From Candidatus Aldehydirespiratoraceae bacterium (lineage in GTDB: Bacteria; Actinomycetota; Acidimicrobiia; Acidimicrobiales; Aldehydirespiratoraceae), in NCBI GenBank assembly GCA_965203375.1, contig OZ241886.1, positions 2,431,249-2,495,248 on the forward strand: a stretch of 64,000 bases of DNA. The letters run 5' to 3'. Positions 6,467 through 62,877 of this stretch are shown here, one piece after another. The notes under the pieces were generated by a model, which saw only the letters and a program-made list of their open reading frames with translations, was not told where the DNA came from and did not search any database. Position 1 is the first letter of the stretch, and each line of letters starts with the position of its first letter. Made by a program: the position numbers and the translations under genes.

Positions 6467-9076
6467 GTGACCACTCCGGCGCTGGGCGAGCGGATGCCGC
6501 CCGGCGGCGGCCCCGACGAGCTGCTGGAGGCCTTCGAGCAGTGGGCGGCCGACGCCGGCTTCGAGCTCTACGAGCATCAGCAGGAGGCGATGCTGCACCT
6601 GCTGGCCGACGACAACGTGGTGCTGGCCACCCCCACCGGGTCGGGCAAGTCGCTGGTGGCGATGGCCGGGATCTTCGCGGCGCTGGCCCGGGGCCGGCGG
6701 GCGGTCTACACCGCGCCGGTCAAGGCGCTGGTGAGCGAGAAGTTCTTCGAGCTGACCGCGGCCTTCGGCGCCGACCGGGTGGGCATGGTCACCGGCGACG
6801 CCACCGTCAACGGCAGCGCCCCGGTGATCGCCTGCACGGCCGAGATCCTGGCCAACCGGACCCTGCGGGCCGGGGCCGCCGCCGGCGCCGACTTCGTGGT
6901 GATGGACGAGATCCACTACTACGGCGACCGGGACCGGGGCTGGGCCTGGCAGGTGCCGCTGCTGGAGCTGCGCCGGGCCCAGTTCCTGCTCATGTCGGCC
7001 ACCCTGGGCGACACCGCCCGGATGCGGGACGACCTGGCCGCCCGGACCGGGCGGGACGCCGCCCTGGTGGCCGCGGCGGAGCGGCCGGTGCCCCTGGACT
7101 TCGAGTACCGCGAGACCCCGCTGCACGTGTCGGTGGAGAAGCTGCTGGAGCAGGGCAAGGCGCCGGTCTACATCGTCCACTTCACCCAGAAGGAGGCCTC
7201 GGCCCGGGCCCAGAGCCTCACCAGCCTCGACGTGCTGGACGCGGCCGGCAAGGCGGCGGTGCGGGAGGCGGTGGGCGGGTTCCGCTTCGACACCCCCGTC
7301 GGCAAGGACCTGAGGCGCTTCGTGACCGCCGGCATCGGCGTCCACCACGCCGGCCTGCTCCCCAAGTACCGGCTGCTGGTGGAGAAGCTGGCCCAGCAGG
7401 GCCACCTGCGTCTGATATGCGGCACCGACACCTTGGGGGTGGGGGTGAACATGCCGGTCCGCACCGTGCTGTTCACCCAGCTCTTCAAGTACGACGGGCG
7501 CCGCACCCGGGTGCTGTCGGTGCGGGACTTCCAGCAGATCGCGGGACGGGCCGGCCGCCGGGGCTTCGACGACGCCGGGAGCGTGTGGGTGCAGGCCCCC
7601 GAGCACGTCGTCGAGAACAAGCGGGCCGAGGTCAAGGCGGCGGCCGCGGCGGCGGCCGGCGGGGGCGGCAAGCGCCGCAAGCCGGTCCGCAAGAAGCCGC
7701 CCGAGCGGGGCTACGCCCACTACGACGGCGACACCCTGGTCCGCCTGGCCGGCGGGGCGCCCGAGACCCTGGAGTCGAGCTTCCGGGTGACCCATGCCAT
7801 GATGCTCAACGTCTTGGACCGGCCCGGCGACGGCTGCGCGGCCATGAAGAAGCTGCTGGTGGACAACCACGAGCCCCGGCCCCGCCAGCGCGACCACATC
7901 CGCCGGGCGGTGAGCGTGTTCCGGTCGCTGACCGACGCCGGGATCGTCGAGGTGCTGGACGAGCCCGACGAGCTGGGCCGCCCGGTGCGGGTCGGCCTCG
8001 ACCTCCAGGACGAGTTCCGGCTCAACCAGCCCCTGTCGCTGTTCGCGGTGGAGGCGGTGGCGGTGCTGGACCGGTCCGCGGCCGACTACCACCTGCAGGC
8101 GCTCAGCCTGGTGGAGTCGATCGTCGAGGACCCGACGGTGGTGCTGATGGCCCAGCTCGACCGGATCAAGGACGGGTTGATTACCCGGATGAAGGCCGAG
8201 GGGATCGAGTACGAGGAACGGATGAGCCGCCTGGCCGAGGTCACCTGGCCCCGGCCCGAGGCCGACTTCATCGAGGGGTCGTTCGAGGTGTTCGCCCGCC
8301 ACCACCCCTGGGTGGAGCGGGACCGGCCCAGCCCCAAGTCGGTGGTGCGGGACATGCTCGAGTGCGCCGACACCTTCAACCAGTACGTGGCCCGCTACGG
8401 CCTGAAGCGCTCGGAGGGGGTGCTGCTGCGCTACCTGTCGGACTGCTACCGGACGCTGACCCAGACCGTGCCGGCCGAGGCGGTCACCGACGAGTTGGAC
8501 GACGTCATCGCCTGGCTGGGGGCGGTCGTCCGCCACGTCGACTCCAGCCTGCTGGACGAGTGGGAGCGGCTCCGCCATCCCGAGGCGCCCGCGGCCTCCG
8601 CGCCGTCCCCCGGCGGCGAAGGAGACGACAGGGGCGAGGGTGGCGAGGAGGGCGACGGCGGCGAGAGCGGCAGGGGTGACGGGGGCGAGGAGGGCCAAGC
8701 CGACATCACCGCCGACCGGCGGGCCTTCGAGGTGATGGTCCGCAACGAGATGTTCGGCTGGGTGCAGTTGCTGGCCCGGCGGGCCCACGGCGAGCTGGCG
8801 GCCCGGCTGGCCGGCGGAGAGTCGAAGACCTGGACCGAGGCCGACCTCGACTCGGCCATGGCCCCGTACTGGGCCGAGCACGACGCCATCGGGATCGACG
8901 GCGAGGCCCGGTCCCGGAACTGGGTCGACATCGACCACGGCACCGGCCGAGTCGCCCAGCGACTGCTCGACCCGGCCGGTCACTGCGAATGGACAGTCGA
9001 GGCCCGCATCGACCGGGCCGCATCTCGGGCCCGCCAGCGGGCAGTGCTGGAGCTAGTCGGGATCAGCCGCCTCTAG
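6467..9076 (+). CDS. Ski2-like SF2 DEAD/DEAH-box helicase (DUF3516-type architecture)
   Basis: Walker A TPTGSGKS, DEIH box VMDEIHYY, helicase C motifs; ~870 aa with acidic low-complexity insert near the C-terminus. Confidence 0.8.
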   Translation: MTTPALGERMPPGGGPDELLEAFEQWAADAGFELYEHQQEAMLHLLADDNVVLATPTGSGKSLVAMAGIFAALARGRRAVYTAPVKALVSEKFFELTAAFGADRVGMVTGDATVNGSAPVIACTAEILANRTLRAGAAAGADFVVMDEIHYYGDRDRGWAWQVPLLELRRAQFLLMSATLGDTARMRDDLAARTGRDAALVAAAERPVPLDFEYRETPLHVSVEKLLEQGKAPVYIVHFTQKEASARAQSLTSLDVLDAAGKAAVREAVGGFRFDTPVGKDLRRFVTAGIGVHHAGLLPKYRLLVEKLAQQGHLRLICGTDTLGVGVNMPVRTVLFTQLFKYDGRRTRVLSVRDFQQIAGRAGRRGFDDAGSVWVQAPEHVVENKRAEVKAAAAAAAGGGGKRRKPVRKKPPERGYAHYDGDTLVRLAGGAPETLESSFRVTHAMMLNVLDRPGDGCAAMKKLLVDNHEPRPRQRDHIRRAVSVFRSLTDAGIVEVLDEPDELGRPVRVGLDLQDEFRLNQPLSLFAVEAVAVLDRSAADYHLQALSLVESIVEDPTVVLMAQLDRIKDGLITRMKAEGIEYEERMSRLAEVTWPRPEADFIEGSFEVFARHHPWVERDRPSPKSVVRDMLECADTFNQYVARYGLKRSEGVLLRYLSDCYRTLTQTVPAEAVTDELDDVIAWLGAVVRHVDSSLLDEWERLRHPEAPAASAPSPGGEGDDRGEGGEEGDGGESGRGDGGEEGQADITADRRAFEVMVRNEMFGWVQLLARRAHGELAARLAGGESKTWTEADLDSAMAPYWAEHDAIGIDGEARSRNWVDIDHGTGRVAQRLLDPAGHCEWTVEARIDRAASRARQRAVLELVGISRL

Positions 9077-9097
9077 CCCCGTTCAGCCCCCCTCCCC

Positions 9098-9153
9098 CGG
9101 GTTTTCTGAGCAAAAATCGTCGCTATACGCCAACTATTTGCTCAGAAAAACAG
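9098..9153. terminator. long AT-rich inverted repeat, putative bidirectional terminator between convergent genes
   Basis: GTTTTCTGAGCAAA ... TTTGCTCAGAAAAAC perfect 14-bp stems (extended imperfectly by CCCCTCCCCC / GAGGGGG), in the only AT-rich patch locally. Confidence 0.4.
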
Positions 9154-9162
9154 AAGAGGGGG

Positions 9163-9894
9163 TCAGCCGGACTCGGCGTCGTCGCCCTCGGTGTCGACAT
9201 CGGCGGCGTCGTCGCCCTCGGTGTCGACATCGGCGGCGTCGTCGCCCTCGGTGTCGACATCGGCGGCGTCGTCGCCCTCGGTGTCGACATCGGCGGCGTC
9301 GTCGCCCTCGGTGTCGACATCGGCGGCGTCGTCGCCCTCGGTGTCGACATCGGCGGCGTCGTCGCCCTCGGTGTCGACATCGGCGGCGTCGTCGCCCTCG
9401 GTGTCGACATCGGCGGCGTCGTCGCCCTCGGTGTCGACATCGGCGGCGTCGTCGCCCTCGGTGTCGACATCGGCGGCGTCGTCGCCCTCGGTGTCGACAT
9501 CGGCGGCGTCGTCGCCCTCGGTGTCGACATCGGCGGCGTCGTCGGACGAGGAGTCAGCGTCGGCGGCTTCGTCCGTGTCGGTTGAGCCGGCGGCTTCACC
9601 TGCGTCGTCGGCGTCGTCGGCGTCGTCGGTCCGGTCGACCGCCCGGCGCACGACATCGGGGACCCGGCCGCCGGTGAGGTCGTCGATCTTGTCGACCACG
9701 GCCTCGGCCACATCGCCGGCCTTGTGGGCGGCCTTGCCCGCCACATCGCCGGCCTTGTCCCAGACATCACCGGCCACGTCGCCGGCCTTGCCGACCAGGT
9801 CCCCCGCCTTGTCGCGAGCCTTGCTGGCCAGATCGCCCATCACGCCTTTGGCCTTGTCGGCAAAATCCTTGTCGTCCATGTCGTCCTCTCCCAT
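9163..9894 (-). CDS. acidic repeat protein: N-terminal KAGD-repeat (CsbD/LEA-like) region + (DDAADVDTEG)x12 C-terminus
   Basis: ATG at 9894 preceded by GGAGAG RBS; N-term DKAKGVMGDLASKARDKAGDLVGKAGDVAGD...; plus-strand ORFs over the same DNA are mirror frames. Confidence 0.65.
   Translation of the reverse strand: MGEDDMDDKDFADKAKGVMGDLASKARDKAGDLVGKAGDVAGDVWDKAGDVAGKAAHKAGDVAEAVVDKIDDLTGGRVPDVVRRAVDRTDDADDADDAGEAAGSTDTDEAADADSSSDDAADVDTEGDDAADVDTEGDDAADVDTEGDDAADVDTEGDDAADVDTEGDDAADVDTEGDDAADVDTEGDDAADVDTEGDDAADVDTEGDDAADVDTEGDDAADVDTEGDDAADVDTEGDDAESG
9184..9543. repeat. perfect tandem repeat, 30 bp x 12 (coding, in-frame)
   Basis: gccctcggtgtcgacatcggcggcgtcgtc repeated 12 times with no mismatches. 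Confidence 0.95.
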
Positions 9895-9971
9895 CGTCGA
9901 TTCTCTCCTGCCGGGCAAAGCTAACGGGCCCGGAGCCCGATCAGTTCCCCTCGATGCGGCGAGGGCCGAAC

Positions 9972-12884
9972 TCACTCGTCGGGGCTCTCCGCGGACGCCG
10001 GAGGGGGAACGGGGGCGAAGTATCCGACGATCAGCAGAAGGACGCCCACCCCTATGAACGAGACCACCCGGCCGAGGGCGTTCTGATCGCTGAGCTCGAC
10101 GAGAAACAGCTTGAGCACCACCACGCCCATGAACGAGGCGCCCGCCACCCACACGGCCCGGCGGGCGGAGCGCACGCCGACGACCATGCCCGCCAGGGCG
10201 ATCGCCGCCCAGAGGATGGACAGCGAAACCTGCAGCGCGGTGGAGTCGAACAGCGATTCGCCGTCGAAGGGAACGCCCAGCCAGTGGTGGACGGTGCGGG
10301 CCGCCGACATGGTGGCGAGGACGGTGCCCGCCGCGGCCATCGCCGGGGCCCACGGGGCCTCGACGAGGTCTTTGAACGGGTGGTCCCCCTCTTCGAACGC
10401 GGCCAGCCTCCTCCACCCGAGCGCCACCGCCAGCAGCAGGGCGGCGAGCAGCCCCAGCGGGTTAAGCAGGGGCAGGTGGGGCAGCGGCGAGAAGTCCCCG
10501 TCGGAGAGAACTGCCGCCAAGAACACCAGGGTGGCCAGCAGCACCAGCACCGGGCCGGCGCAGGCGGTGACGTAGCGGCGCCGATGCGCCCCCAGCGGCC
10601 ACGCGGATGAGCGCAGGCCCCCGAGGGTTCCCCCCACCAGGGCCAGCACCGCGGCCAGCGCGGCGACGGGCGGCCAGGCGCCGTCGGCGATCTGGTCCGT
10701 CTGCCAAAGCACTTCGACGCCGATCAACACGGCCATCACCCAGTAGCCGCCCGCGTGCAGCGCGGTCTGGAGCTTGGGGAACTCGCCCTCCCGCAGCCGC
10801 AGGAACGCGTAGTAGGCGGCGACGGACACGGGCCATGCGGCCCATCCGTAGTCACCGAGCGGATGGGTCTGCCCGACGACCGAGGCGTAGAGCGCCACGA
10901 CCATGGTCGGGAGGATCAGGGGCCCCAAGGCGCCGAGGTGCGGCCACCGGAGCCGCCGGGCCGACAGGCCCGCCGCGGCGAAGGAGAGCGCGGCGAAGGC
11001 GAGCGAGGCCGACAGCGTCCCGGCCGAGGCCTGGTAGCCGATCTCCATGAGCCCGCCCGCGAGCCACCAGAGGACCCCCCAGGCCAGCGCCAGCCAACAG
11101 ACCGATTCATCGGCGCCGATGCGGTCCCCGGACCGGTGCAGCAGCCAGCCCGACACCAGGCCCGCGCCGGCCAGCACGACGGCGCCCAAGAAGTACTCGT
11201 TGACGATCACCGGCGCGTCGGGCGGATACGGGAGGGACTCGCTCAGATGCGAGCCGAGCGAGGAGCCGGCCAGCGCCTGCAGCACGCCGCCGGCGACGAC
11301 GGCGAGCAGACGGGATCGGCGGAGGCCGAACCAAACCAGCAGTAGGCCCTGCAGCGCCCAGACGGTGGCGGTGTAGTAGGCGTCCAGCGCGAACGGGACG
11401 GCGATGACGGCGAACGCCGCGCCCAGGCCGACGTATGACTCCGTCAGCGCCCGTCCCCCTCCGCCCAGCTTGCGGGCGACCGCGGCCAAGCCGCCGTGGA
11501 CCAAGGCCAGCGCCAGCGCGCTCGCGGCCAGGCCGTACTCGGTGTGGCCGATCAGGATGGCCTGAAGGCCGAACCCGATGAACGGCGTGCCGAAGACGAG
11601 CGGCGCCGTCCGCACGTCCTTCAGGTCGGGGGCCGCCCGAGCGGCGAACAGCACCGGTATCGCCGCGTACATCAGCACGAACAGGGCGATGAACGGCTGG
11701 ATGGAGGCCCAGTCGTCAGACGTGTGGCGGTCCAGGAGCCAATAGGCGGAGATGGCGAACGTGAAGCCGAGGCCGGCCAGGTTGAGCTCGGGCCAGACCT
11801 TGAACCAGGCGACTCCGACGATGGCGGCGTTCAGCACCGCGTAGAAGCTGAAGACCCAGATGTGGTCCTCGGGCCGCGAGTAGGCCAGCACCGGGGCGAG
11901 GAATCCGCCGACGATGCCGAGAAGGGCCAGGGTCCGCGAGTCTTGGGTGACGGCGAGGACTCCCGCGCCGACCGTGACCGCCACGACGGCCGCCGCCGCG
12001 GGGGCGGGCGCCAGGACGTCGTACACCGCGAAGGCGGCGTACGTCGTCAGGTACAGCACGGCGATGCCCCCGCCTTGGAGGCTCAGGCCGTACACGGGGC
12101 GCCGGGCGCGGAGGCGCCAGCCCACGACGAGCAGCGCCAGGCCGAACATCGTGACGGCGGCCAGGATCATCTCGACGGTCAACTCGATGAGGCCGCGCTC
12201 GTTGGCCTCCCGAATCAAAAAACCCAGCCCTATGAGCGAGATCAGGACGCCGACCTTCACGGGCACGTTGCCGGTCAAGGCCCACGTCTTGACCGCGTCG
12301 GCGAACCGCGTCAGGGGATCGGCGAGTGCGGCCGGAGAGACGGAGGGCACCGGGGCGGGTTCGGCCGCGGGGCGGAACGTCCGCACCGCCTCCGCGGGCT
12401 TCTCCGAAGAGGCGGCCGGCGCCGGGGCGGGTTCGGCCGCGGCCGGCTCGGCCTGAGGGGAGGCAGGCGCCGACTGAGCCTCCTCCGACACCCAGGGAGA
12501 GACAGTCGGCTGAGCCTCCTCCGAAACCCACGGTGACACAGGCGACAACGCCTCCGGGGCCGGCCTTGAAATATCTGCAGGGCCGGCCGCCTCCGCCGGT
12601 GCGGCCTCAGCCTCCTCGCCCCCTTCGCGGGGGTCGGCGGCGGCCGGCTGCTCAACGGTCACCGGCGGCCGGGCCTGAGCCTCTTCAAACCAGGCCTGAG
12701 CGCTTCCGAACCAAGACTGGGCCCTTTCGAACCAGGCCTGAGATTGTTCGAACTCGTCGAGTCGTCGCCGCAAATCCCGGCACCGGCTTAAGAGAAAGCC
12801 GATGGCGCCGCCGAAGAAGACGCCCGGGAACTGATCGATGATCCCGCCCAGCACCGCGCCGACGACAACGAACAGGCCGGTCAA
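9972..12884 (-). CDS. DUF2339-family polytopic membrane protein
   Basis: N-terminal TM, AWFE repeats and Pro/Ala-rich linker, then ~20 TM helices; ~970 aa typical of actinobacterial DUF2339. Confidence 0.7.
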   Translation of the reverse strand: MTGLFVVVGAVLGGIIDQFPGVFFGGAIGFLLSRCRDLRRRLDEFEQSQAWFERAQSWFGSAQAWFEEAQARPPVTVEQPAAADPREGGEEAEAAPAEAAGPADISRPAPEALSPVSPWVSEEAQPTVSPWVSEEAQSAPASPQAEPAAAEPAPAPAASSEKPAEAVRTFRPAAEPAPVPSVSPAALADPLTRFADAVKTWALTGNVPVKVGVLISLIGLGFLIREANERGLIELTVEMILAAVTMFGLALLVVGWRLRARRPVYGLSLQGGGIAVLYLTTYAAFAVYDVLAPAPAAAAVVAVTVGAGVLAVTQDSRTLALLGIVGGFLAPVLAYSRPEDHIWVFSFYAVLNAAIVGVAWFKVWPELNLAGLGFTFAISAYWLLDRHTSDDWASIQPFIALFVLMYAAIPVLFAARAAPDLKDVRTAPLVFGTPFIGFGLQAILIGHTEYGLAASALALALVHGGLAAVARKLGGGGRALTESYVGLGAAFAVIAVPFALDAYYTATVWALQGLLLVWFGLRRSRLLAVVAGGVLQALAGSSLGSHLSESLPYPPDAPVIVNEYFLGAVVLAGAGLVSGWLLHRSGDRIGADESVCWLALAWGVLWWLAGGLMEIGYQASAGTLSASLAFAALSFAAAGLSARRLRWPHLGALGPLILPTMVVALYASVVGQTHPLGDYGWAAWPVSVAAYYAFLRLREGEFPKLQTALHAGGYWVMAVLIGVEVLWQTDQIADGAWPPVAALAAVLALVGGTLGGLRSSAWPLGAHRRRYVTACAGPVLVLLATLVFLAAVLSDGDFSPLPHLPLLNPLGLLAALLLAVALGWRRLAAFEEGDHPFKDLVEAPWAPAMAAAGTVLATMSAARTVHHWLGVPFDGESLFDSTALQVSLSILWAAIALAGMVVGVRSARRAVWVAGASFMGVVVLKLFLVELSDQNALGRVVSFIGVGVLLLIVGYFAPVPPPASAESPDE

Positions 12885-14628: not shown

Positions 14629-17037
14629 TCAGCCGCCGGTCGCGTTGAGTTCGCTTTGCCATGTCTGTCCCCGATGGGTGAACTGGCCGGTGCTGATGCT
14701 GGCAATGTCGTAGTCGGGCAGCTTGACCTCCGCTGTGCATCTTCGGCCGTCGATGGATCCGCGCTCAATGAAGGCGAAGTCGAAATTGTCGAATCCGGAT
14801 TGTCGGCGGTGGTCGGGCAAATCCATTCTGTCGACTGGGAATACGTGTACGAAGAAATCGTCGCTGATATCACCGTTGTGGCATTGCTCTCGAATGTACA
14901 TCAAGGTTCTATCGCTGGTGAGATAGACATCAAAGCGGCCGCGAACAGCCGCAGTTGTGGGGAGGTTGATGACTTGATCCGCCCGTTGGTGCAACTCGGC
15001 ATTGGCTACATGGTCAGGCCCGAAGAATCTCCCACCCCAGATAGGTCCTCCACTGCTGGACTGGCCGGTGCTGATGCTGGCAATATCATAATCAGGCAGA
15101 TCAAAAATCACAACATACCGCTCGGCATCCATAATAAGCCGATCGAGCGGAGTGAAGCCGTAAGATTCGTGATCCTGGCTGGAATCCACAGGGTGGACTA
15201 TCAAATCGATAGGGCTTGACAGCAGCAGCGGATTTTCTGTGCAGCGATTCCCTATATATATGAGTTTTCTGTCATCGGTGAGGTAGACGTCAAAATCACC
15301 CCGAACCGCTGGCCTACTCCTTTCAACAATTTTGTTTATGCGTTCCTCATATGCATGCCGATCATACAGGTACATCACCTGATTGTCCGGCGTCAACAAA
15401 CCTCGAGCATCGTTTAGCTTGGGCTGAAGAATGAAATCAACTCTGTACGAATTGATGCGACAATCACGGCTATCAAATATGAGGCCACTGCCATGCAGAT
15501 AATAGAACAAGCCGTCATACGGCCAGACATAAGGATACCAGTCCCAGCCGTGGGGGTCGTATATGGGGATATCAGGGCGAGTATAGACAAGAATATTCCT
15601 TCCGTCGGTGAACGAGCGTATCATTTCAATATCATCTGCTATCAACTCTTCTATGTCCATAAACTCGGCACTAGGATCTTCAACCTCAGCATAGGCCACC
15701 CTATAGCTAGAGGTCACAAACAACACAAATGCACCCACTGCACTTAGCGGTAACAACTCTTTACCTTTGCCCGACCATTTATATAATAACGACAGAATCA
15801 AAGTATAAAAAAACAAGACCGCACCTACATAATACAAACTTTCAAATCCGTACGGATCATGTTGATGAATATTATATCGCATTGGAATTGACCAGCAGAA
15901 CCCGGAAAGAACTGCGGTCAAAGCCAGCAAACGATGACGCCTGAGATGAACCGCCCCGACTACACACACCCCGACCATGCCGATTCCCGCCAATGCAGCC
16001 TGAGGCACCGTCCGACCCGAGCCAGACCATGAACCGAATGGCAAAGCGAAAGGGATTGCCAGATACGACAATCTCTCCAACTGTGAATAAAGAAACGCAT
16101 CCCACCGTATCCTATAATCATCTGCCAGCCACTCATCCACGCTCCGCAGGTCTATTCCGGTGCGTCTCAACGCGGAGTCGACCGACGGCAGGTTTGATAA
16201 TGCTAATTGATCGCCTGCCCTAAAGTTGAGGGCATAGTATTCATTGGCGATATTGTAGGTTAATATCAATATCCCGAACCCCAGGGCAACAAACCCTAGA
16301 GTAAAATAGCGGCTAGTCATCACTCTCGATAAATAGAGTGAGAGTGAAAATCCTTGAATCGTCTTTGCCTTCTGCGCTTGGATGATCTCCTTGGCCAAGC
16401 CGAGAAGCACGAAAGGCAATAGCAACGCCAATACATGCCAGCCCAACAACAAAGCAAGACAGGCCTTAACCACTAACTGCCGAAAACGGCCATCTTGGGA
16501 GAAGATCACCATGCCATGGAAGGTAAGGGCGAACCCGAAAAGGTCGGGCATAAGTTCTGGCATTGTCGCGGTAGAATATGTCAACACTGTAGAGGATGCA
16601 AACCCCAGTAGAACTGCCGTGGAAGCAATCCATCGGTTTGAGATAAGCCGACATAGCGACCAATAGGCTAACACCACAGTACCGGCGAAGAACGCCACCA
16701 TAAGCATTTGAACCGCGGCGATACGAGTAGACAGGCCGTCACCCACAACCAAAGTGACTAACTTCATCAGCATATAGCCACCAGGAGGGAATCTATTATA
16801 TGCCACATAATCGATACCACCAGATACGTCGTAAATCTGATTAAAAAACCCCAGGAAATAGTGACTAGGGGAAAGATTGACGGCCACCGTTAAGTGCTGA
16901 TAATTCGAACGATATCCTTCGTTTAGAGTGCCAGTTATCCTGCCGAAGAAAAAAAACGTGGACAACCCGATCAACAACAAAACAAGCGGCAACGACCTCA
17001 GCCACAAGGCCGACCGATTATGACGCAAGAGAGCCAC
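14629..17037 (-). CDS. large polytopic membrane protein, paralog A (N-terminal ~10-12 TM + C-terminal duplicated soluble domain); possible GT-C-like glycosyltransferase
   Basis: low-GC gene; GTG start after GGTAGGAGA RBS; internal duplicated motifs LPDYDIASISTGQ and RG.FDVYLT.DR.L.YI; function not recognised. Confidence 0.65.
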   Translation of the reverse strand: MALLRHNRSALWLRSLPLVLLLIGLSTFFFFGRITGTLNEGYRSNYQHLTVAVNLSPSHYFLGFFNQIYDVSGGIDYVAYNRFPPGGYMLMKLVTLVVGDGLSTRIAAVQMLMVAFFAGTVVLAYWSLCRLISNRWIASTAVLLGFASSTVLTYSTATMPELMPDLFGFALTFHGMVIFSQDGRFRQLVVKACLALLLGWHVLALLLPFVLLGLAKEIIQAQKAKTIQGFSLSLYLSRVMTSRYFTLGFVALGFGILILTYNIANEYYALNFRAGDQLALSNLPSVDSALRRTGIDLRSVDEWLADDYRIRWDAFLYSQLERLSYLAIPFALPFGSWSGSGRTVPQAALAGIGMVGVCVVGAVHLRRHRLLALTAVLSGFCWSIPMRYNIHQHDPYGFESLYYVGAVLFFYTLILSLLYKWSGKGKELLPLSAVGAFVLFVTSSYRVAYAEVEDPSAEFMDIEELIADDIEMIRSFTDGRNILVYTRPDIPIYDPHGWDWYPYVWPYDGLFYYLHGSGLIFDSRDCRINSYRVDFILQPKLNDARGLLTPDNQVMYLYDRHAYEERINKIVERSRPAVRGDFDVYLTDDRKLIYIGNRCTENPLLLSSPIDLIVHPVDSSQDHESYGFTPLDRLIMDAERYVVIFDLPDYDIASISTGQSSSGGPIWGGRFFGPDHVANAELHQRADQVINLPTTAAVRGRFDVYLTSDRTLMYIREQCHNGDISDDFFVHVFPVDRMDLPDHRRQSGFDNFDFAFIERGSIDGRRCTAEVKLPDYDIASISTGQFTHRGQTWQSELNATGG

Positions 17038-17052
17038 TGATCTCCTACCTCA

Positions 17053-19500
17053 CTAGCCGCCAGTGGGGTTGAGTTCGCTGCGCCATATTTGTCCTTGATT
17101 GGTGAACTGTCCGGTGCTGATGCTGGCGATATCATAGTCGGGCAGTTCGATCTCCCCTACGCATCTTTGGCCGTCGATGGATCCGTATTCGGTGAAGGCG
17201 AAGTCGAAATTGTCGAATCCGGATTGTCGGCGATGGTCGGGCAGGTTCATTCTGTCAACTGGGAATATATGCACGAAGAAGTCGTCGCTGATATCACCGT
17301 TGTGGCATTGCTCTCGAATGTACATCAAGGTTCTATCGCTGGTGAGATAGACATCAAAGGGGCCGCGAACAGCCTCGATCCGTGAGAGACTGATGACTTG
17401 ATCCGCCCGTTGGTGCAACTCGGCATTGGCTACATGGTCGGGCCCGAAGAATCTCCCACCCCAGATAGGTCCTTCACTGCTGGACTGGCCGGTGCTGATG
17501 CTGGCAATATCATAATCGGGCAGATCAAAAATCACAACATACCGCTCGGCATCCATAATAAGTAGCTCGTGCATAGTGAAACCGTATAATTTGTAATCCT
17601 GACTGGAATCGGAGAGAACATTAGTATCCACAGGATAGACCATCAGATGAACATGATTTGACAGCAATAACGGGTTTATTGTGCAGCGATTTCCGACATA
17701 CAGGAGCTTTCGGTCATCGGTAAGATAGACATCAAAATCACCCCGAACCGCTGGCCCGATTTTTTCGACTATTTTATCTATACGTTCCTCATAAACATGC
17801 CGGTCATACAGGTACATCACCTGATTGTCCGGCGTCAACAAGCCTTGAGCGTCGTTCTGCTTAGGCTGAAGAATGAAATCCACTCTGTACGAACTGATGC
17901 GACAATCACGGCTATCAAATATAAGTCCACTGCCATGCAGATAATAGAACAACCCGCCATACGGCCAGATATAGGGATACCAATCCCAGCCGTGAGGGTC
18001 GTATATAGGGATATCAGGGCGAGTATAGACAAGAATATTCTTTCCATCACTTAACTGTCGGATAGTTTCAACATCATCTACTATCAAACTCTCTATATCA
18101 ATAAAAGCTTTGTCATTAGGACGCTCGATTTCAGCATAGGCTACCTTGTAGCTGGAGGTCACAAACAACACAAATGCACCTACTGCACTTAGCGGTAACA
18201 ACTTTTTACCTTTGCCCGACCATTTATATAATAACGACAGAATCAAGGTATAGAAAACCAAAATTACACCTATATAGTACAAACTCTCAAAAAAGTGCGG
18301 GCCAGTATTGTATCGCATAGGAATCGACCAGCAAAACCCGGAAAGAACCGCGGTCAGAACCAACAGACGATGACGCCTGAGGTGAACCGCCCCGATCACA
18401 CATACCCCGATCATGCTGATTCCCGCCGATGCAGCCCAAGGTATTGTTTTAACCAAGACCGTCCTATCCAAGCTAGACCATGAACCGAACGGCAAGGCAA
18501 AGGGAATCGCCAAGTACGACAATCTCTCCAACTGCGAATAAAGAAAAATATACCACTGCACCTGATATTCGCTGCTCAGCCATCTCCCTATTTCATCCGG
18601 GTTCCCTATGTCTGTTCCGGTGCGTCTCAACGCGGAGTCGATCGATGGCATATCTGATAATGCCAATTGATCGCCCGCCCTAAAGTTGAGGGCATAGTAT
18701 TCATTGGCGATATTGTAAGTTAATATCAATATCCCGAACCCCAGGGTAACAAACCCCAAGGTGAAATAGCGACTAGTCACCGCTCTCGATAAATAGAGTG
18801 ACAATGAGAATCCTTGAATCGTCTTTACCTTCCGAGCTTGGATGATTTCCTTAGTCAAGCCGAGAAGTACGAAAGGCAAGAGCAACGCCAATACATGCCA
18901 ACCCAACAACAAAGCAAGACATGCCTTAACAACCAACTGCCGGAAACGACCATCCTGAACGAAAATCACCATGCCATGAAAGGTGAGCGAAAACCCGAAA
19001 AGGTCGGGCATGATTTCCGGTATCGTCGCGGTAGAATATATCAACACCGTAGAGGATGAGAACCCCAACAAAACTGCCGTCGAAGCAATCCACCGGTTTG
19101 AGATAAGCCGACATAGCGACCAATAGGCCAACACCGCGGTTCCAGCGAAGAACGCCACCATAAGCATTTGAACAGCCGCGACACGAATAGACAAGCCATC
19201 ACCTACAACCAAAGTGATCAACTTCATCAGCATATAGCCACCAGGAGGAAATTTATTGTAGGCCGCATAATCGATACTACCAGATACGTCATAAACCTGA
19301 TTCAGGAACCCCAGGAAATGGTGACTGGGAGAAAGATTGATCGCCGCTGCCATATGTTGATGAGAAAGAAAATAGTTTTCGTTTAGGGTGCCAGTTATCC
19401 TGCCGAATAAAAAAATCGTGGACAACCCGATCAACAACAAGATGAGCGGCAACAACCTCAGCCTCGAAGCCAACCGACCTTGACCTAACGGAGCCACCAA
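17053..19500 (-). CDS. large polytopic membrane protein, paralog B (same architecture as A)
   Basis: TTG start after GGTAGGGGA RBS; same TM and C-terminal motif layout as A, with near-identical nucleotides over the 3'-terminal ~450 bp. Confidence 0.65.
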   Translation of the reverse strand: MVAPLGQGRLASRLRLLPLILLLIGLSTIFLFGRITGTLNENYFLSHQHMAAAINLSPSHHFLGFLNQVYDVSGSIDYAAYNKFPPGGYMLMKLITLVVGDGLSIRVAAVQMLMVAFFAGTAVLAYWSLCRLISNRWIASTAVLLGFSSSTVLIYSTATIPEIMPDLFGFSLTFHGMVIFVQDGRFRQLVVKACLALLLGWHVLALLLPFVLLGLTKEIIQARKVKTIQGFSLSLYLSRAVTSRYFTLGFVTLGFGILILTYNIANEYYALNFRAGDQLALSDMPSIDSALRRTGTDIGNPDEIGRWLSSEYQVQWYIFLYSQLERLSYLAIPFALPFGSWSSLDRTVLVKTIPWAASAGISMIGVCVIGAVHLRRHRLLVLTAVLSGFCWSIPMRYNTGPHFFESLYYIGVILVFYTLILSLLYKWSGKGKKLLPLSAVGAFVLFVTSSYKVAYAEIERPNDKAFIDIESLIVDDVETIRQLSDGKNILVYTRPDIPIYDPHGWDWYPYIWPYGGLFYYLHGSGLIFDSRDCRISSYRVDFILQPKQNDAQGLLTPDNQVMYLYDRHVYEERIDKIVEKIGPAVRGDFDVYLTDDRKLLYVGNRCTINPLLLSNHVHLMVYPVDTNVLSDSSQDYKLYGFTMHELLIMDAERYVVIFDLPDYDIASISTGQSSSEGPIWGGRFFGPDHVANAELHQRADQVISLSRIEAVRGPFDVYLTSDRTLMYIREQCHNGDISDDFFVHIFPVDRMNLPDHRRQSGFDNFDFAFTEYGSIDGQRCVGEIELPDYDIASISTGQFTNQGQIWRSELNPTGG

Positions 19501-41299: not shown

Positions 41300-41743
41300 C
41301 TACTGTCGGTTCGGGTTGCGATCGAGCCAGATCTGGAGCGTTTCGGTGGTCCAAGTAGGCACGCCAGTACCCAGGTAGTCGTTGTCGTTGGTCCAGATAC
41401 CCGCCGACAGCACCAACGCGCAGGCGACCGCGGGCCAGTCGTCGGGGTCGCGCCGTGACCGGGCGAGAGCCTCGTCCTCGGCAGCGGCGTAGACGGCCTT
41501 GTCAATCACGGTGATGTTGGCTCGGACAGTCCCGAGGCAAATGGAGGTCAACTCTTCGACGATCTCGTATCGGAGCTGCCGAGCGCGCCCGAACGCTGCG
41601 GCCCGCCGGGGCAGTTCCACGGTTGTCTCAATCCACATCTGGTCAGGCAAGAACAATTCGAGCCGGTCATCCTCTAGACGTTGACGGCCCTTGACGCGAA
41701 GCAACTCGCCGACGAGCACGCTGGTGTCGACGACCAGTCGCAT
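41300..41743 (-). CDS. vapC: type II toxin VapC (PIN domain)
   Basis: MRLVVDTSVLVGELL N-terminus; ATG overlaps antitoxin stop (TGATG). Confidence 0.75.
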   Translation of the reverse strand: MRLVVDTSVLVGELLRVKGRQRLEDDRLELFLPDQMWIETTVELPRRAAAFGRARQLRYEIVEELTSICLGTVRANITVIDKAVYAAAEDEALARSRRDPDDWPAVACALVLSAGIWTNDNDYLGTGVPTWTTETLQIWLDRNPNRQ

Positions 41744-46214: not shown

Positions 46215-47219
46215 ATGACCGGCAACAAGTCGCCCGAAGACGCCCGCGACGCTGAAACTGCCGTAAGCGAAGCATCAAGCGAAGCATCAACAGATGAAGC
46301 ATCAACAGACGTTGACCGCATACAAGGCGGTGAGCATCCAAACGACCGGGTTGTCTTCAGCGACAACATGGAAGTGCTGCCCTCGCTGCCCGCCGCCTCG
46401 GCCCGGCTGATCTACATCGACCCGCCGTTCAACACCGGCACGACCCGGGTGAGGCGAACGCTGGAGACAGTGCGCAGCGACGACGGCGACCGCACCGGCT
46501 TCGGGGGCCGCAGCTACCGGTCCGCCGAACTGGGACGCACCGAGTACGGCGACAGCTTCGACAGCTTTCTCGACTTCATCGGGCCCCGCCTGCGCCAGGC
46601 CCGCCGCCTGCTAACCGACGACGGCACCCTCTACCTGCACCTCGACTACCGCGAGGCCCATTACTGCAAGGTGCTGCTCGATCAAATCTTCGGGCGGGAG
46701 TGCTTCATAAACGAGATCATCTGGGCCTACGACTACGGCGGGCGCTCCAAGCGGCGCTGGCCCGCCAAACACGACACCATCCTCATGTACGCCAAGGACC
46801 CGGACCGCTATTTCTTCGACCAAGACGCCATCGAGCGCATCCCCTACATGGCGCCGGGGCTGGTGTCGGCCGAGAAGGCCAGCCGGGGCAAGCTGCCCAC
46901 CGACGTGTGGTGGCACACCATCGTCGCCACCAACGGCTCGGAGAAGACCGGCTACGCCACCCAGAAGCCCGAAGGAGTGCTACGCCGCATAATCATGGCG
47001 TCCTCGCAGCCCGGCGACCTAGTGGTGGACTTCTTCGCCGGATCGGGAACCACCGGGGCGGTGGCCCGCCAGCTAGATCGCTCGTTCCTGCTGGTCGACA
47101 GCAACTGGACGGCGATCGAGACCATCGCCCGCCGGCTGGGCCTCGCCGGCATCGCCTACACCGACGCCGCCGGCCGCCCCATCGACGACAAACACCTTCT
47201 CTCGCTGGGAACGACTTAG
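46215..47219 (+). CDS. beta-class DNA methyltransferase (probably N6-adenine), orphan
   Basis: motif IV DPPF precedes motif I FAGSGTT; acidic Ser/Glu-rich N-terminus. Confidence 0.8.
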   Translation: MTGNKSPEDARDAETAVSEASSEASTDEASTDVDRIQGGEHPNDRVVFSDNMEVLPSLPAASARLIYIDPPFNTGTTRVRRTLETVRSDDGDRTGFGGRSYRSAELGRTEYGDSFDSFLDFIGPRLRQARRLLTDDGTLYLHLDYREAHYCKVLLDQIFGRECFINEIIWAYDYGGRSKRRWPAKHDTILMYAKDPDRYFFDQDAIERIPYMAPGLVSAEKASRGKLPTDVWWHTIVATNGSEKTGYATQKPEGVLRRIIMASSQPGDLVVDFFAGSGTTGAVARQLDRSFLLVDSNWTAIETIARRLGLAGIAYTDAAGRPIDDKHLLSLGTT

Positions 47220-48565: not shown

Positions 48566-49072
48566 TCAGGGCAGGAACCGGCTGACCGACTCGACCACGC
48601 AGGCCGGCTTCTCCGCGCCCTCGATCTCCACGGTGATGGTGATGACCGCCTGCACTCCCCCGCCGGGCAGTTCGGATACCTCGGTGACCACGGCCGAGCC
48701 CCGAACCCTAGACCCCGCCGTCACCGGATGCGGGAACCTCACCCGGTTGACGCCGTAGTTGATCCCCATCGAGATCCCCTCCACCCGCATGACCTCCGGG
48801 AGGAAGAGGCTGGTGAGGGCCAGGGTCAGATAGCCGTGGGCGATAGTGGCCCCGAACGGCCCCTTCGCCGCGGCCTGCGGATCGACGTGGATCCACTGGT
48901 GGTCGCCGGTGGCCTCCGCGAACAGGTTTATGCGGTCCTGGTCGATGGTGATCCAGTCGCTGTTCCCGAGATGGCGGCCGACGGCGCCGAGCAGTTCCCG
49001 GGGGGAGGCGAACACGGCAGTCACCCGCCCGACGCTACCGGGCCACCGGCCGAGGTCACCGGCCGAGGTCAC
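48566..49072 (-). CDS. MaoC-like (R)-hydratase / hot-dog fold protein
   Basis: hot-dog fold, ...DHQWIHVD...GATIAHG. Confidence 0.75.
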   Translation of the reverse strand: MTSAGDLGRWPGSVGRVTAVFASPRELLGAVGRHLGNSDWITIDQDRINLFAEATGDHQWIHVDPQAAAKGPFGATIAHGYLTLALTSLFLPEVMRVEGISMGINYGVNRVRFPHPVTAGSRVRGSAVVTEVSELPGGGVQAVITITVEIEGAEKPACVVESVSRFLP

Positions 49073-49095
49073 CGGCCGAGGTCACCGGCCGCCCT
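49041..49095. repeat. 13-bp direct repeat x3.5 (ACCGGCCGAGGTC) in divergent promoter region
   Basis: four consecutive units overlapping the putative MaoC start. Confidence 0.7.
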
Positions 49096-49207: not shown

Positions 49208-50305
49208 GTGGCGGCAGGCGGAGGCACCAAGGCGATCCTGGCCGCCCTGTTCGCCAACCTCGGGATAGCCATCGCCAAGTTCGTCGCCTTCGCCTTCACC
49301 CGGTCGTCGTCGATGCTGGCTGAGGCCATCCACAGCGTGGCCGACACCTCCAACCAGGCCCTGCTGCTGCTGGGCGGCCGCCTGGCCCGCCGGGACGCCA
49401 CCGACGAGCACCAGTTCGGGTTCGGGCGGGAGCGCTACTTCTGGTCCTTCGTGGTGGCCTTGGTGCTGTTCTCGGTGGGATCGCTGTTCGCCCTCTGGGA
49501 GGGCGTGGAGAAGATCCGCCACCCCCACGAGATCGACTCGCCCCTCTGGGCCATCTCGGTGCTGTCCATCGGCATCGTGCTGGAGGGCTTTTCCTTCAGA
49601 ACCGCCATCGTCGAGTCGAACCGCATCCGGGGCTCGGCCTCCTGGACGGCCTTCATCCGCCGATCCCGGACCCCGGAGCTGCCGGTGGTGCTGCTGGAGG
49701 ATCTCGGCGCCATGATCGGCCTGGTTTTCGCCCTGACCGCGGTGAGCATCGCCACCGTCTTCGACGCCCCGGTGTGGGACGGGATCGGCACCCTGTCCAT
49801 CGGCGTGCTGCTGGGGGCCATCGCCGTGGTGCTGATGGTGGAGATGCGCAGCCTGCTGCTGGGAGAGTCGGCCGGCAAGGCCGACGCCGCCGCCATCCGG
49901 GCCGCCATCTCCTCCACCGAGGGGGTGGAGAGGCTGATCCACCTGCGCACCCAGCACCTCGGGCCCGACGAGCTGCTGGTGGCGGCCAAGGTGCAGTTCG
50001 ACCCCGGCTACACCACCGCCGAACTGGCCGCGGCCATCGACCGGGTGGAAACCAACACCCGCCGGGCCGTGCCCATCGCCAGCCCCATGTACGTGGAACC
50101 CGGCATCGGGCAGGTCGAGGGCTCCGAGGAAGAGCACTCCGAAGGCGACGGCCCCGAAGGCGAACACTCCGAGGACGGCCAAGCCCGGGGCAGCGAAGGC
50201 AGCGGTTTCGCAAGCGAGAGCCCCGAAGGCGGCGAGGACGACGGCCCCGAAGGCGGCGAGGACGACGGCCCCGAAGGCGGCGACCGGGCCCGAGACCGGG
50301 AATGA
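49208..50305 (+). CDS. cation diffusion facilitator (CDF) transporter with acidic C-terminal tail
   Basis: 6 TM + C-terminal cytoplasmic domain; GTG start; tail EGSEEEHSEGDGPEGE... Confidence 0.8.
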   Translation: MAAGGGTKAILAALFANLGIAIAKFVAFAFTRSSSMLAEAIHSVADTSNQALLLLGGRLARRDATDEHQFGFGRERYFWSFVVALVLFSVGSLFALWEGVEKIRHPHEIDSPLWAISVLSIGIVLEGFSFRTAIVESNRIRGSASWTAFIRRSRTPELPVVLLEDLGAMIGLVFALTAVSIATVFDAPVWDGIGTLSIGVLLGAIAVVLMVEMRSLLLGESAGKADAAAIRAAISSTEGVERLIHLRTQHLGPDELLVAAKVQFDPGYTTAELAAAIDRVETNTRRAVPIASPMYVEPGIGQVEGSEEEHSEGDGPEGEHSEDGQARGSEGSGFASESPEGGEDDGPEGGEDDGPEGGDRARDRE

Positions 50306-54938: not shown

Positions 54939-56206
54939 CCGGACCCGGCACCCTCAACCACGTCGACACCGAAGCCGACTCGGCTGCCCTTGACCGCGGA
55001 GACAGCAGGGCCGACCCGACCGCCTTCCACCGCGCCGACGCCGGAGCCGACCCGGTCGCCTTCGATCACGTCGACGTCGGGGGCAAGCGCAGCCCCCACA
55101 ACGCCAAGTGGTCCCAATACGGCCCCGACGTTCTGCCGGCCTGGGTGGCCGAGCACGACTTCCGCCAGCCCGACTCGGTGATAGAGGCCATGCGGGCCAC
55201 GATCGACCGGGGCGAGCTGGGCTATCACCGCCGCGACTCTGAGGTGGCCGAGGCCTTCGGGGGCTGGGCCCGGTCCCGCTACGGCTGGGACCCCGACCCG
55301 GCGCTGGCCGCGGTGTGCGTGGACGCCCTCCAGGGCGTCGTCGCCGCGGTCACCGCACTGGCCGGCCCCGGCGAGGGGGTGATCCTGACGCCGCCCGTCT
55401 ACCACGTGTTCTGGCAGATCTGCCCCACCTCGGGGCGGCGGCCGGTGGAGTGGCCGATGCGGCAAGGCCCCGGCGGATGGCGCCTCGACCCCGACGACCT
55501 CGAAGCGGTGGCCGCGGCCGACCCCGGCGCCAAGGTGCTGTTGCTGTCGCACCCCCAGAACCCCACCGGCCGGGTGGCCGACCGAGACACCCTGGCCCGC
55601 ATCGTCGAGGTGGCCCGCGATCGCGGCCTCTACGTCGTGTCCGACGAGATTCACGGCGACATGGTGTACCCCCCGGCCGAATTCGTGCCCATGCTGTCGC
55701 TGGACGGCGCCGCCGACCGGGTGATAACCGTGACCTCGCCGGCCAAGACCTTCGCCCTGTCGGGGCTGCGCTGCGCCCTAACCGTCTTCGGCTGCCCGGA
55801 GCTGCGCCGCCGGGTGATCGAGGCCCACCCTCCCCTGCTGCTGGGCCACGCCTCCCGGACGGGCATCGACGCCTCGGTGGCGGCCTGGACCGAGGGCGGG
55901 GCCTGGGCCGACCGGCTGCTCGACCAGCTCCGGGCGAACCGCGACCATCTGGCCCGGCGGCTGGCGGCCGAGGCCCCGGCGGTGCGGATGCACCTGCCGG
56001 AGTCGACGTTTCTGGCCTGGCTGGACGTGTCGGCCTGCGGCCTGGGCCACCGGCCCGCCGCCGCCCTGCTGGAGCGGGCCCGGGTGGCGCTGCTGGAGGG
56101 AACCGAGTTCGGGACCGGCGGCGAAGGCTGCGTGCGGCTCAACTTCGGGACGTCTGAGGCGCTGCTAGACGCCATAATAGACCGGCTCATCCCCCATCTG
56201 CGATGA
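54935..56206 (+). CDS. MalY/PatB-family PLP-dependent C-S lyase / aminotransferase
   Basis: FDHVDVGGKRSPHNAKW (PatB-type N-terminus), PLP-lysine context; start uncertain, GTG 54935 is the only nearby candidate. Confidence 0.75.
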   Translation: MTGPGTLNHVDTEADSAALDRGDSRADPTAFHRADAGADPVAFDHVDVGGKRSPHNAKWSQYGPDVLPAWVAEHDFRQPDSVIEAMRATIDRGELGYHRRDSEVAEAFGGWARSRYGWDPDPALAAVCVDALQGVVAAVTALAGPGEGVILTPPVYHVFWQICPTSGRRPVEWPMRQGPGGWRLDPDDLEAVAAADPGAKVLLLSHPQNPTGRVADRDTLARIVEVARDRGLYVVSDEIHGDMVYPPAEFVPMLSLDGAADRVITVTSPAKTFALSGLRCALTVFGCPELRRRVIEAHPPLLLGHASRTGIDASVAAWTEGGAWADRLLDQLRANRDHLARRLAAEAPAVRMHLPESTFLAWLDVSACGLGHRPAAALLERARVALLEGTEFGTGGEGCVRLNFGTSEALLDAIIDRLIPHLR

Positions 56207-60719: not shown

Positions 60720-60751
60720 CCTCCGATCAACCTGCTCATCCCCCACCTGCA

Positions 60752-62868: not shown

Positions 62869-62877
62869 CCTCAGCCC

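Follow-up and report, generated by a model that had tools for sequence, protein, structure and literature searches.

An apparent repeat hotspot in the acidic tail of a small orphan protein, MT0933-like and LEA-like, of a Candidatus Aldehydirespiratoraceae bacterium

How does a small bacterial protein come to end in twelve identical decapeptides, and what could such a tail do? The question is raised by a minus-strand gene at positions 9163-9894 of a 64,000-nucleotide stretch of DNA from a Candidatus Aldehydirespiratoraceae bacterium (GenBank assembly GCA_965203375.1, contig OZ241886.1, positions 2,431,249 to 2,495,248), hereafter called the window, whose own numbering is used throughout. Judged from sequence, the array represents the extreme among the alleles of a repeat hotspot, located in the tail of an orphan small protein that is MT0933-like and resembles the late embryogenesis abundant (LEA) proteins. 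We give a probability of roughly 0.6 to the joint reading that this is a small cytoplasmic, hydrophilic PF14013-like protein whose hotspot tail was amplified in frame, which combines a helix with a polyanionic brush and which has no toxin-antitoxin partner.

The repeat array and its strain alleles

An exact-pattern search found the 30-mer GACGACGCCGCCGATGTCGACACCGAGGGC in 12 tandem minus-strand copies without a single mismatch, a pattern that none of 100 dinucleotide-preserving shuffles matched. Tandem Repeats Finder (TRF) reported 12.4 copies of period 30 at 9174-9544, with 100% matches and no indels, and a direct scan for w[i]=w[i+30] returned equal bounds. The preliminary description of this locus, which had announced that a KAGD-repeat protein ends in (DDAADVDTEG)x12, encoded by twelve perfect repeats, was exact in coordinates, unit, count and frame. 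The elements of the gene that concern the tail are the following.

9163-9894, minus strand: gene for the 243-aa protein, with the stop codon TGA at 9163-9165 (translation)
9184-9543, minus strand: 12 identical 30-bp units, (DDAADVDTEG)x12 (exact search, TRF, periodicity scan)
Within the perfect periodicity of 9174-9544, minus strand: partial 13th unit GACGACGCCG, running into DDAESG*
9544-9573, minus strand: diverged proto-unit GACGAAGCCGCCGACGCTGACTCCTCGTCC (DEAADADSSS), directly upstream of the array in the coding direction
9602-9629, minus strand: second perfect micro-repeat in the tail, GACGACGCC x3 (DDADDADDA) (TRF)

The open reading frame (ORF) running from 9894 to 9163 starts with MGEDDMDDKDFADKAKGVMGDLASKARDKAGDLVGKAGD and reads MGEDDMDDKDFADKAKGVMGDLASKARDKAGDLVGKAGDVAGDVWDKAGDVAGKAAHKAGDVAEAVVDKIDDLTGGRVPDVVRRAVDRTDDADDADDAGEAAGSTDTDEAADADSSS(DDAADVDTEG)12DDAESG*, with SSS standing just before the array. 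Its N-terminal part holds four KAGD motifs, which are part of six 11-residue repeats described below. The 9-mer of the micro-repeat is the same one that opens every 30-bp unit, and the micro-array (9 bp x3.1) is also present in the sister genome L172.

The minus-strand frame is the coding frame, because a ribosome-binding site (GGAGAG) lies ahead of the ATG, the product has a Pfam match and about 57 homologues, and the ORF is called in L172, where the gene call gives a 243-aa product at the same locus. The G+C content of third codon positions is about 0.9 within the unit in both the minus- and the plus-strand frames and therefore cannot tell them apart. The plus-strand frame, (GVVALGVDIG)n, overlaps the 3' end of the neighbouring helicase gene and the intergenic hairpin, and no homologues of it were found.

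Close relatives of the locus were reached through the 90%-identity clusters of the two flanking genes (34 members for the helicase and 19 for a DUF2339 membrane protein), from which six contigs were fetched. Their tail alleles, with the identity of their flanks to those of the window, are listed here.

L172 (3.66-Mb contig, 238x), flanks 98.5-98.9% identical: 12.4 units, 243 aa; units 4 and 9 are GACGACGCCGCCGATGTCGAC-TCCTCGTCC (DDAADVDSSS)
L178, flanks 96-97% identical: ...DSSS DEAADAD DTES (DDTEG)3 DDTESG*, that is, 15-nt units, DDTE(S/G) x5, 171 aa
L173/L174 (same sample, ERZ23496253), flanks 96.5-97.4% identical: DGTEG x at least 5, 15-bp units
L176/L177, flanks 86-91% identical: GDDGA x3, 165 aa

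The comparison of repeat number among strains thus gave 12 units in the window and in L172, and other periods or units in L178, L173/L174 and L176. With five alleles at one orthologous site between flanks that are 86-99% identical, the locus qualifies as a variable-number tandem repeat (VNTR). The variation extends to the N-terminal 11-residue repeat region, which is longer by 29 aa in L178 and by 40 aa in L173/L174. The exact 30-mer had no match in the metagenome contig collection searched, and both the exact window protein (four alternative starts tried) and the L172 allele were absent from the protein collection searched.

The L172 allele is the most informative about how the units relate to each other. 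The last 9 nt of its two variant units (TCCTCGTCC) are also the last 9 nt of the flanking proto-unit DEAADADSSS, and the five clustered differences that set these units apart are the same in both. On its sequence, such a mosaic is the signature of exchange between units, by gene conversion or unequal crossover, and not of point mutation. It supports the earlier suggestion that the lack of divergence in the window reflects recent expansion or homogenisation: L172 has a 12-unit array as well, with units 4 and 9 mosaic. In the window array, all 120 codons are identical from unit to unit, third positions included; therefore the uniformity comes from recency or homogenisation rather than from purifying selection on the peptide. 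The further proposal of a hypervariable copy-number locus stands in part, since allelic turnover between strains is evident from the DDTEG, DGTEG and GDDGA alleles, whereas rapid change in count is not, both long contigs having 12 units.

Could the count of 12 and the perfect identity have been made by the assembly of an otherwise real array? The 371-bp perfect array is longer than typical short-read k-mers, and conspecific short-read scaffolds do break or gap inside their arrays (a 100-N gap in L173, the contig end in L174). On the other hand, database records place the two flanking gene products of the window, in exact form, on a 3.74-Mb contig, and the separate 3.66-Mb contig of L172, at 238x and from another sample, has an equal-length array that keeps two variant units, so that variants are not automatically erased. 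An assembly or polishing artefact is in our view improbable. The count of 12 is credible because the flanking genes' exact products lie on a contig of 3,744,278 bp and because an array of the same length was assembled independently in L172; judging by their size and names, both contigs are presumably of long-read origin.

The L173 and L174 scaffolds belong to one short-read assembly, have an identical DUF2339 gene and both fail inside the tail array. These breaks fit either an array longer than the reads or heterogeneity of copy number within the sample.

How the array may have started is suggested by its borders and by the sister strains. At its borders stands a direct repeat of 10 nt, GACGACGCCG, which makes up the first 10 nt of each unit and the start of the terminal DDAESG codons; microhomology of this kind seeds a first slippage duplication. 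The proto-unit segment is single-copy in L178 and L173, as is DEAADAD+DTE(S/G), the counterpart of the 30-nt unit that the window lineage has amplified; in these two strains only the 15-nt 3' half of the corresponding unit was amplified. The unit is also partly self-complementary and holds the near-palindrome GATGTCGACACC, and four units fold as a long imperfect hairpin (-40.3 kcal/mol as DNA, z=-4.3; z=-6.4 as RNA). Self-folding of this type favours slippage.

We therefore picture the following course, which is conditional at every step. A 30-bp segment (DDAADVD+TEG), single-copy in the sister strains and bounded by GACGACGCCG, would have been duplicated first, and would then have grown in frame to 12 copies, through slippage during replication or through unequal recombination, aided by the self-folding of the array. 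Exchange between units (gene conversion) would keep or make them identical. The tail would be kept polyanionic even as its precise sequence, its period and its length drift, because all alleles seen preserve the frame, are acidic and have no basic residue, and ...ESG* is the ending of four of the five. The tail thus appears to be a mutational hotspot in this lineage, that is, an in-frame hypervariable tail driven by recombination or slippage. Duplication of the tail recurs in the family, as the more distant positional orthologue at locus L081 has its own perfect duplication of 33 nt (2.2 copies, DGDADETDGEV x2).

The repeat might also act at another level, as a pentapeptide-repeat beta-helix mimicking DNA, as an opposite-strand ORF, as phased DNA-binding sites or as a structured RNA. 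In a search of PDB sequences the tail aligned with Legionella DotG/IcmE (E=3.7e-7) over the 10-residue repeats of that protein, every unit holds the near-palindrome, the array RNA folds strongly, and Rfam models of miRNA precursors match below threshold. Against this stand the sister strains with their different units and the plus-strand ORF, which is without homologues and overlaps the helicase end; we regard this set of explanations as barely credible. The beta-helix (DotG/IcmE-, MfpA/Qnr-like) was rejected: the alignment has no more in common than a G..A.D skeleton recurring every 10 residues, one of the two core hydrophobic positions, Phe in DotG, is Asp here, and AlphaFold2 (AF2) gives no strands, with a predicted local distance difference test score (pLDDT) below about 55 throughout the tail. 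Rfam returned nothing at gathering thresholds. A permissive Rfam search gave about 20 eukaryotic miRNA-precursor matches (MIR4374, MIR5534, mir-598 and others) that tile 9181-9547 far below gathering scores, and we set them aside as an artefact of the self-complementarity of the array.

The protein, its family and its possible function

What kind of protein carries this tail? Two elements define its N-terminal part.

9664-9861, minus strand: six 11-residue amphipathic repeats, consensus a-D-K-A-G-D-V-A-G-D-V, residues ~12-77 (TRF periods of 33, 21 and 54 nt; 11-residue register)
9619-9759, minus strand: conserved core, residues 46-92 (...AEAVVDKIDDLTGGRVPDVVRRAVDRTD), PF14013 MT0933_antitox (Pfam, family alignments)

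The six repeats, at residues 12-77, are ADKAKGVMGDL, ASKARDKAGDL, VGKAGDVAGDV, WDKAGDVAGKA, AHKAGDVAEAV and VDKIDDLTGGR, and the core motif TGGRVPD follows. Position 3 is an invariant Lys, and hydrophobic residues occupy positions 1, 4, 7 and 11. The hydrophobic moment reaches its maximum, 0.43, at 98.2 degrees, the angle of an 11/3 helix (z=5.8), a value that none of 2000 shuffles reached. Tandem 11-mers forming an amphipathic helix are what characterises group 3 LEA proteins, and their presence here supports a protein that works like them, not membership of their family. An AF2 model built on a 37-sequence alignment (mean pLDDT 54) has a long helix at residues 7-74 and a short one at 80-89, and no secondary structure from residue 90 on, where the pLDDT lies below about 55.

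Pfam searches with the full-length protein and with its N-terminal 117 aa gave a single family above threshold. The N-terminal 117 aa score 28.8 bits with PF14013 (MT0933/Rv0909-like 'antitoxin'), for which the gathering threshold is 27 bits (E=1.4e-6), and the match spans positions 2-48 of the 49 in the profile. CsbD (PF05532) did not match at E<=10 with either the full-length or the N-terminal query, nor did LEA_4 (PF02987) or any other LEA model match the window protein at that threshold; the HMMER filters drop most matches above about 0.1, so any similarity to unlisted families is weaker than that. Below threshold, Pfam listed DUF3659, YtxH and Rv1893-like matches. The PADLOC anti-phage models gave no family at E<=1. 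The PDB holds no solved homologue of the N-terminal domain, and profile matches to Hsp12 and apolipophorin-III were weak and not significant. The only NCBIfam matches, to staphylococcal Ser-Asp repeat adhesins, were compositional and far below cutoffs, and we discarded them.

Word-indexed homology searches gave two matches to the full-length protein and one to its N-terminal part, and the family was found by exhaustive HMMER and profile searches. The resulting subfamily comprises 57 relatives of 38-203 aa (median 72 aa), the longest being 130 aa if one unrelated-looking match of 203 aa is set aside, and 37 of the 57 have a precomputed PF14013 match. They follow one pattern, opening with MG(I/L)KDFADKAK, continuing with (D/E)KAGD-type repeats in varying number and with the core AAEAxVDKVDDMTGGKVPDAVKxAVDKIDG, and ending in an acidic tail. 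Three relatives (P0157, P0167 and P0201) have precomputed matches to PF28479 'At4g13230', named after an Arabidopsis LEA_4 protein (PMC2292704), and the automatic JGI names include 'YjbJ (UPF0337 family)' for P0156 and 'ElaB/YqjD/DUF883' for P0005. The earlier proposal of a CsbD/LEA-type N-terminus is therefore borne out for its physical kind, by the six 11-mers and the three PF28479 relatives, and fails as a statement of family.

In the 51 relatives with a locatable core, the tail is acidic, nearly free of Lys and Arg and 4-33 aa long (median 9); that of the window protein has 153 aa, about 4.6 times the next longest in the family. The earlier claim that such a tail is unusual is right as to its length but not as to its acidity, which is the family norm. 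The 153 residues include 75 Asp and Glu and no basic residue (48% acidic). With a hydropathy of 0.376, against a Uversky boundary of 0.587, and a net charge of 0.48 per residue, the tail is predicted to be disordered. For the whole protein, the net charge is about -81, the isoelectric point about 4.05 and the grand average of hydropathy -0.90.

The family name raises the possibility that the protein is the antitoxin of a toxin-antitoxin pair of the Rv0909-Rv0910 type. Besides the PF14013 match, this would accord with the finding that Rv0909/MSMEG_5635 rescued the growth inhibition caused by the START-domain protein Rv0910/MSMEG_5634 (PMC2781298). Later work, however, saw neither toxicity of Rv0910 nor an interaction, and Rv0910 has been reassigned to acyl-AcpM binding (2026 review, PMC13525633), so that the status of the founding pair is itself questioned. 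At the present locus, the neighbours are a convergent DUF3516 helicase and a DUF2339 membrane protein, and no START/SRPBCC/polyketide-cyclase gene is adjacent in the window or in the 12 relatives' loci inspected (called neighbours, L081-L087 and L168-L178). We consider an antitoxin role very unlikely.

The composition of the tail led the preliminary description to call it Ca/metal-binding-like. In its specific form, this would make each DVDTEG(DD) a putative EF-hand-like DxDxDG loop and the tail a high-capacity Ca2+/Mg2+ buffer. The tail does offer 12 DxDx[DE]G motifs, nearly half of its residues are acidic and none is basic, and low-affinity condensation of cations on such a polyanion is physically unavoidable. 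Nevertheless, all 12 motifs are DxDxEG and none is an exact DxDxDG; no EF-hand, TSP3, RTX or other Ca-binding model of Pfam or NCBIfam matched at E<=10; and the sister units DDTEG, DGTEG and GDDGA are without the motif, which argues that no specific loop geometry is conserved. The suggestion was thus not borne out at the sequence level, and specific Ca2+ binding, which we find doubtful, ranks below a function as a brush.

In the reading we prefer, a helix of about 65 residues, amphipathic and made of 11-mers in the manner of LEA_4 proteins, apolipoproteins and alpha-synuclein, would be followed by the TGG(K/R)VPD core and an unstructured acidic C-terminal tail. The helix may adsorb to a membrane, lipid or protein surface. 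The tail, with its 75 negative and no positive charges, would form a hydrated, cation-holding and aggregation-preventing brush, as in stress proteins of the hydrophilin/LEA type, and its sequence and length would be only loosely constrained. By analogy with these proteins, we infer a joint function of helix and polyanionic brush.

A different view of the same alleles is that the length or type of the tail is itself selected, the repeat being an adaptive contingency or tuning locus that generates heritable and reversible variation of the polyanion (for example, in cation buffering or surface charge). Genomes whose flanks are 96-99% identical have at least four different tails between them, with all changes in frame; exactly 12 units are kept in two independent genomes despite exchange at the level of units; and the number of N-terminal 11-mers varies too. 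However, in-frame units of 15, 30 and 33 nt change length and provide no on/off switching, and other acidic low-complexity linkers in the same genomes also vary, as in the neighbouring helicase, which suggests a general mutational tendency and not selection specific to this locus. We hold a tuning locus to be possible, at a probability well below that of the brush with a drifting tail. Its stronger form appears somewhat less probable still, namely that populations maintain the alleles since tail length sets a quantitative property, and that the 12-unit length is actively maintained. If true, it would be a rare cytoplasmic contingency locus that modulates length, and is not an on/off switch, in a LEA-like bacterial protein, and tail length would set cation buffering, the charge at the surface of the membrane or lipid body that the 11-mer helix coats, or protection against crowding.

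Several points weigh against the loosely constrained helix and brush, and against the repeat history that goes with it. The PF14013 match is marginal and is lost in the full-length scan, probably owing to the compositional bias of the tail, and the confidence of the AF2 model is modest even in the helix (pLDDT 54-75). The function as a brush or hydrophilin is argued from analogy alone. As to the repeat, variant units may in principle have been lost from the window array when a long-read assembly was polished, the 15-bp alleles come from short-read scaffolds whose arrays are possibly collapsed, and the two closest and most complete genomes share the count of 12, so that fast change in count is not demonstrated. 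Tail length could also be under selection.

Neighbouring genes, signals and other features of the window

The gene lies between a convergent helicase gene and a same-strand gene for a membrane protein, with the following elements around it.

6467-9076, plus strand: convergent DEAD-box/DUF3516 helicase, a conserved neighbour of the gene family (Pfam, synteny)
9089-9162, between the convergent stop codons: hairpin with a 13-bp AT-rich stem, TTTTCTGAGCAAA/TTTGCTCAGAAAA, a 22-nt loop and GC-rich outer arms (inverted repeat, fold)
9903-9908, minus strand: Shine-Dalgarno-like motif GGAGAG, lying 8 nt ahead of the 9894 ATG (sequence)
9923-9948, minus strand: candidate promoter of the extracytoplasmic function (ECF) sigma type, GGAAC-N17-CGTT, 28 nt upstream of the start (motif search)
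9972-12884, minus strand: upstream same-strand gene for a DUF2339 membrane protein (Pfam)

Four of the six distant family members that were looked up (P0081, P0160, P0005 and P0164) stand tail-to-tail with a DUF3516 helicase, as in the window. The orthologue loci with this arrangement are L081, L085-87, L169 and L170-171; the two helicase proteins compared there (L081 and L085) are 65-66% identical to that of the window, and these positional orthologues have 77-106 aa with tails of 11-33 aa. At the helicase loci of more distant Actinomycetota, among GTDB species representatives and JGI metagenomes, a family member was never found next to the helicase; these helicases are at most 52% identical over the C-terminal 311 aa, the best being those of Ilumatobacteraceae and Acidimicrobiales at 46-52%. 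The DUF2339 neighbour is restricted to the closest relatives, being present in L172, L173, L176 and L178 and absent from L081, L085, L169 and L170.

The helicase has an acidic linker rich in Gly, Glu and Asp (GGEGDDRGEGGEEGDGGESGRGDGGEEG) that contains a 42-bp unit x2 (window 8611-8695, codons ~716-743). Across members of the 90%-identity cluster, whose proteins have 844-872 aa, this linker can be as short as about 10 or as long as about 36 residues. Two adjoining genes therefore each have an acidic low-complexity stretch that varies between strains, which hints at a tendency of the lineage as a whole.

The start of the gene can be placed at either of two codons. GGAGAG precedes the ATG at 9894, as it precedes MGIKDF in relatives, and a second motif, GGAGAGG, lies in codons 2-4, ahead of an alternative ATG at 9879 (MDDKDF..., 238 aa). 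The genes of L173 and L178 are called from MDDKDF, and 9879 is the conserved start, because the ATG at 9894 is ACG in both. Upstream, GGAAC-N16-18-CGTT has two matches on the two strands of the 64-kb window (9923-9948 and 41592-41618, both minus), where 1.2 are expected by chance. The first is kept in L172 and L173, whereas L178 has GGTT in place of CGTT; from L176 outwards the region can no longer be aligned. As a promoter it is a weak candidate, resting on what we take to be the ECF-sigma consensus. A GC-rich hairpin with a T-rich run is found after the DUF2339 stop (9925-9939, minus strand).

The hairpin between the convergent genes folds strongly as RNA (-51.7 kcal/mol, z=-5.55). Both strands have U-tracts on the 5' side of the stem and A-tracts on its 3' side; with the U-tract missing after the stem, the hairpin does not qualify as a canonical intrinsic terminator. 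It would be the likely transcript end of both genes. Its core is kept in L176, the 86-91% relative, though the remaining spacer has diverged there, and it is tandemly duplicated in L173 (~7650-7780) and L178, with about 100 extra nt, and single-copy in the 64-kb window.

Elsewhere in the window, several further repeats and paralogues were seen. At least three, and probably four, tandem paralogous genes spaced by about 2.2-2.4 kb occupy ~56200-64000; the two that were scanned have SLH domains (177-bp internal repeats) and a glucose/sorbosone dehydrogenase (GSDH) beta-propeller, and one of them also has fn3. For an actinobacterium, such an array of SLH-anchored GSDH paralogues is unusual. Two tandem paralogues of 802 and 815 aa are encoded on the minus strand at 14629-19500, spaced by about 2.4 kb and 80-89% identical in DNA over repeated segments; the 802-aa protein had no Pfam match at E<=1e-5. 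Perfect micro-arrays were also found at 49044-49091 (13-bp unit CACCGGCCGAGGT x3.7, a period not divisible by 3) and at 50220-50283 (24-bp unit x2.7). A stand-alone N6/N4 DNA methylase (PF01555) is encoded at 46215-47219 on the plus strand.

Meaning of the allele and comparison with known systems

The array reveals no new mechanism or system, and repeat instability is expected in low-complexity coding regions of high-GC actinobacteria. Should our reading be right, the locus would nevertheless show cleanly, in a natural setting, how the alleles of a disordered tail evolve in concert and turn over: strains with 96-99% identity have amplified one short acidic segment at different periods, 15 and 30 nt, and mosaics record recombination. 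It would also mean that the label 'MT0933-like antitoxin' is a poor guide to what would be an orphan, LEA-like subfamily with a convergent helicase as its sole conserved neighbour. Moreover, the allelic series, in which a single conserved helix bears tails of anything between about 10 and 153 residues, would offer a natural system for studying the polyanionic tails of bacterial stress proteins.

Among known proteins, the closest by family are those of PF14013 (Rv0909/MSMEG_5635 of mycobacteria), which are likewise small, helical and actinobacterial and have a D-K-x-D-x-x-T-G-G-K/R core. The subfamily departs from the canonical members by continuing as TGGKVPD and not in the TGGKYSD-type manner (compare P0031, P0130 and P0144), and the window protein departs from them by having no adjacent START-domain partner and by its 153-aa tail, where family totals are about 50-100 aa. 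The resemblance to CsbD/YjbJ (UPF0337, PF05532), also small helical bacterial proteins rich in Lys, Asp, Gly and Ala, comes without a match to that family at E<=10. With group 3 LEA proteins (LEA_4, At4g13230), apolipoproteins, perilipins and yeast Hsp12, the window protein has in common tandem 11-mers, one long amphipathic 11/3 helix and a hydrophilic composition. This likeness is known from sequence alone; the 11-mer consensus, aDKAGDVAGDV, differs from that of LEA_4, and LEA models of Pfam gave no match at E<=10.

In its layout, the protein recalls alpha-synuclein, in which N-terminal 11-mer amphipathic repeats that bind lipid are followed by a disordered, acidic, cation-binding C-terminal tail. 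The similarity is an analogy only: there is no sequence homology, and the bacterial tail, made of perfect tandem repeats, has about four times the length.

As a repeat locus, finally, it can be set beside the tandem repeats and coding VNTRs of other bacteria, such as the mycobacterial interspersed repetitive unit (MIRU) VNTRs and the Ser-Asp regions of staphylococcal Clf/Sdr proteins. Like bacterial VNTRs, it has tandem units in frame, strain variation in their number and type, homogenised units, and mosaics from recombination within the array. Unlike MIRU-VNTRs or Clf/Sdr, it is neither intergenic nor part of an adhesin stalk; it forms the tail of a small cytoplasmic protein, and its period differs between strains (15 versus 30 nt).

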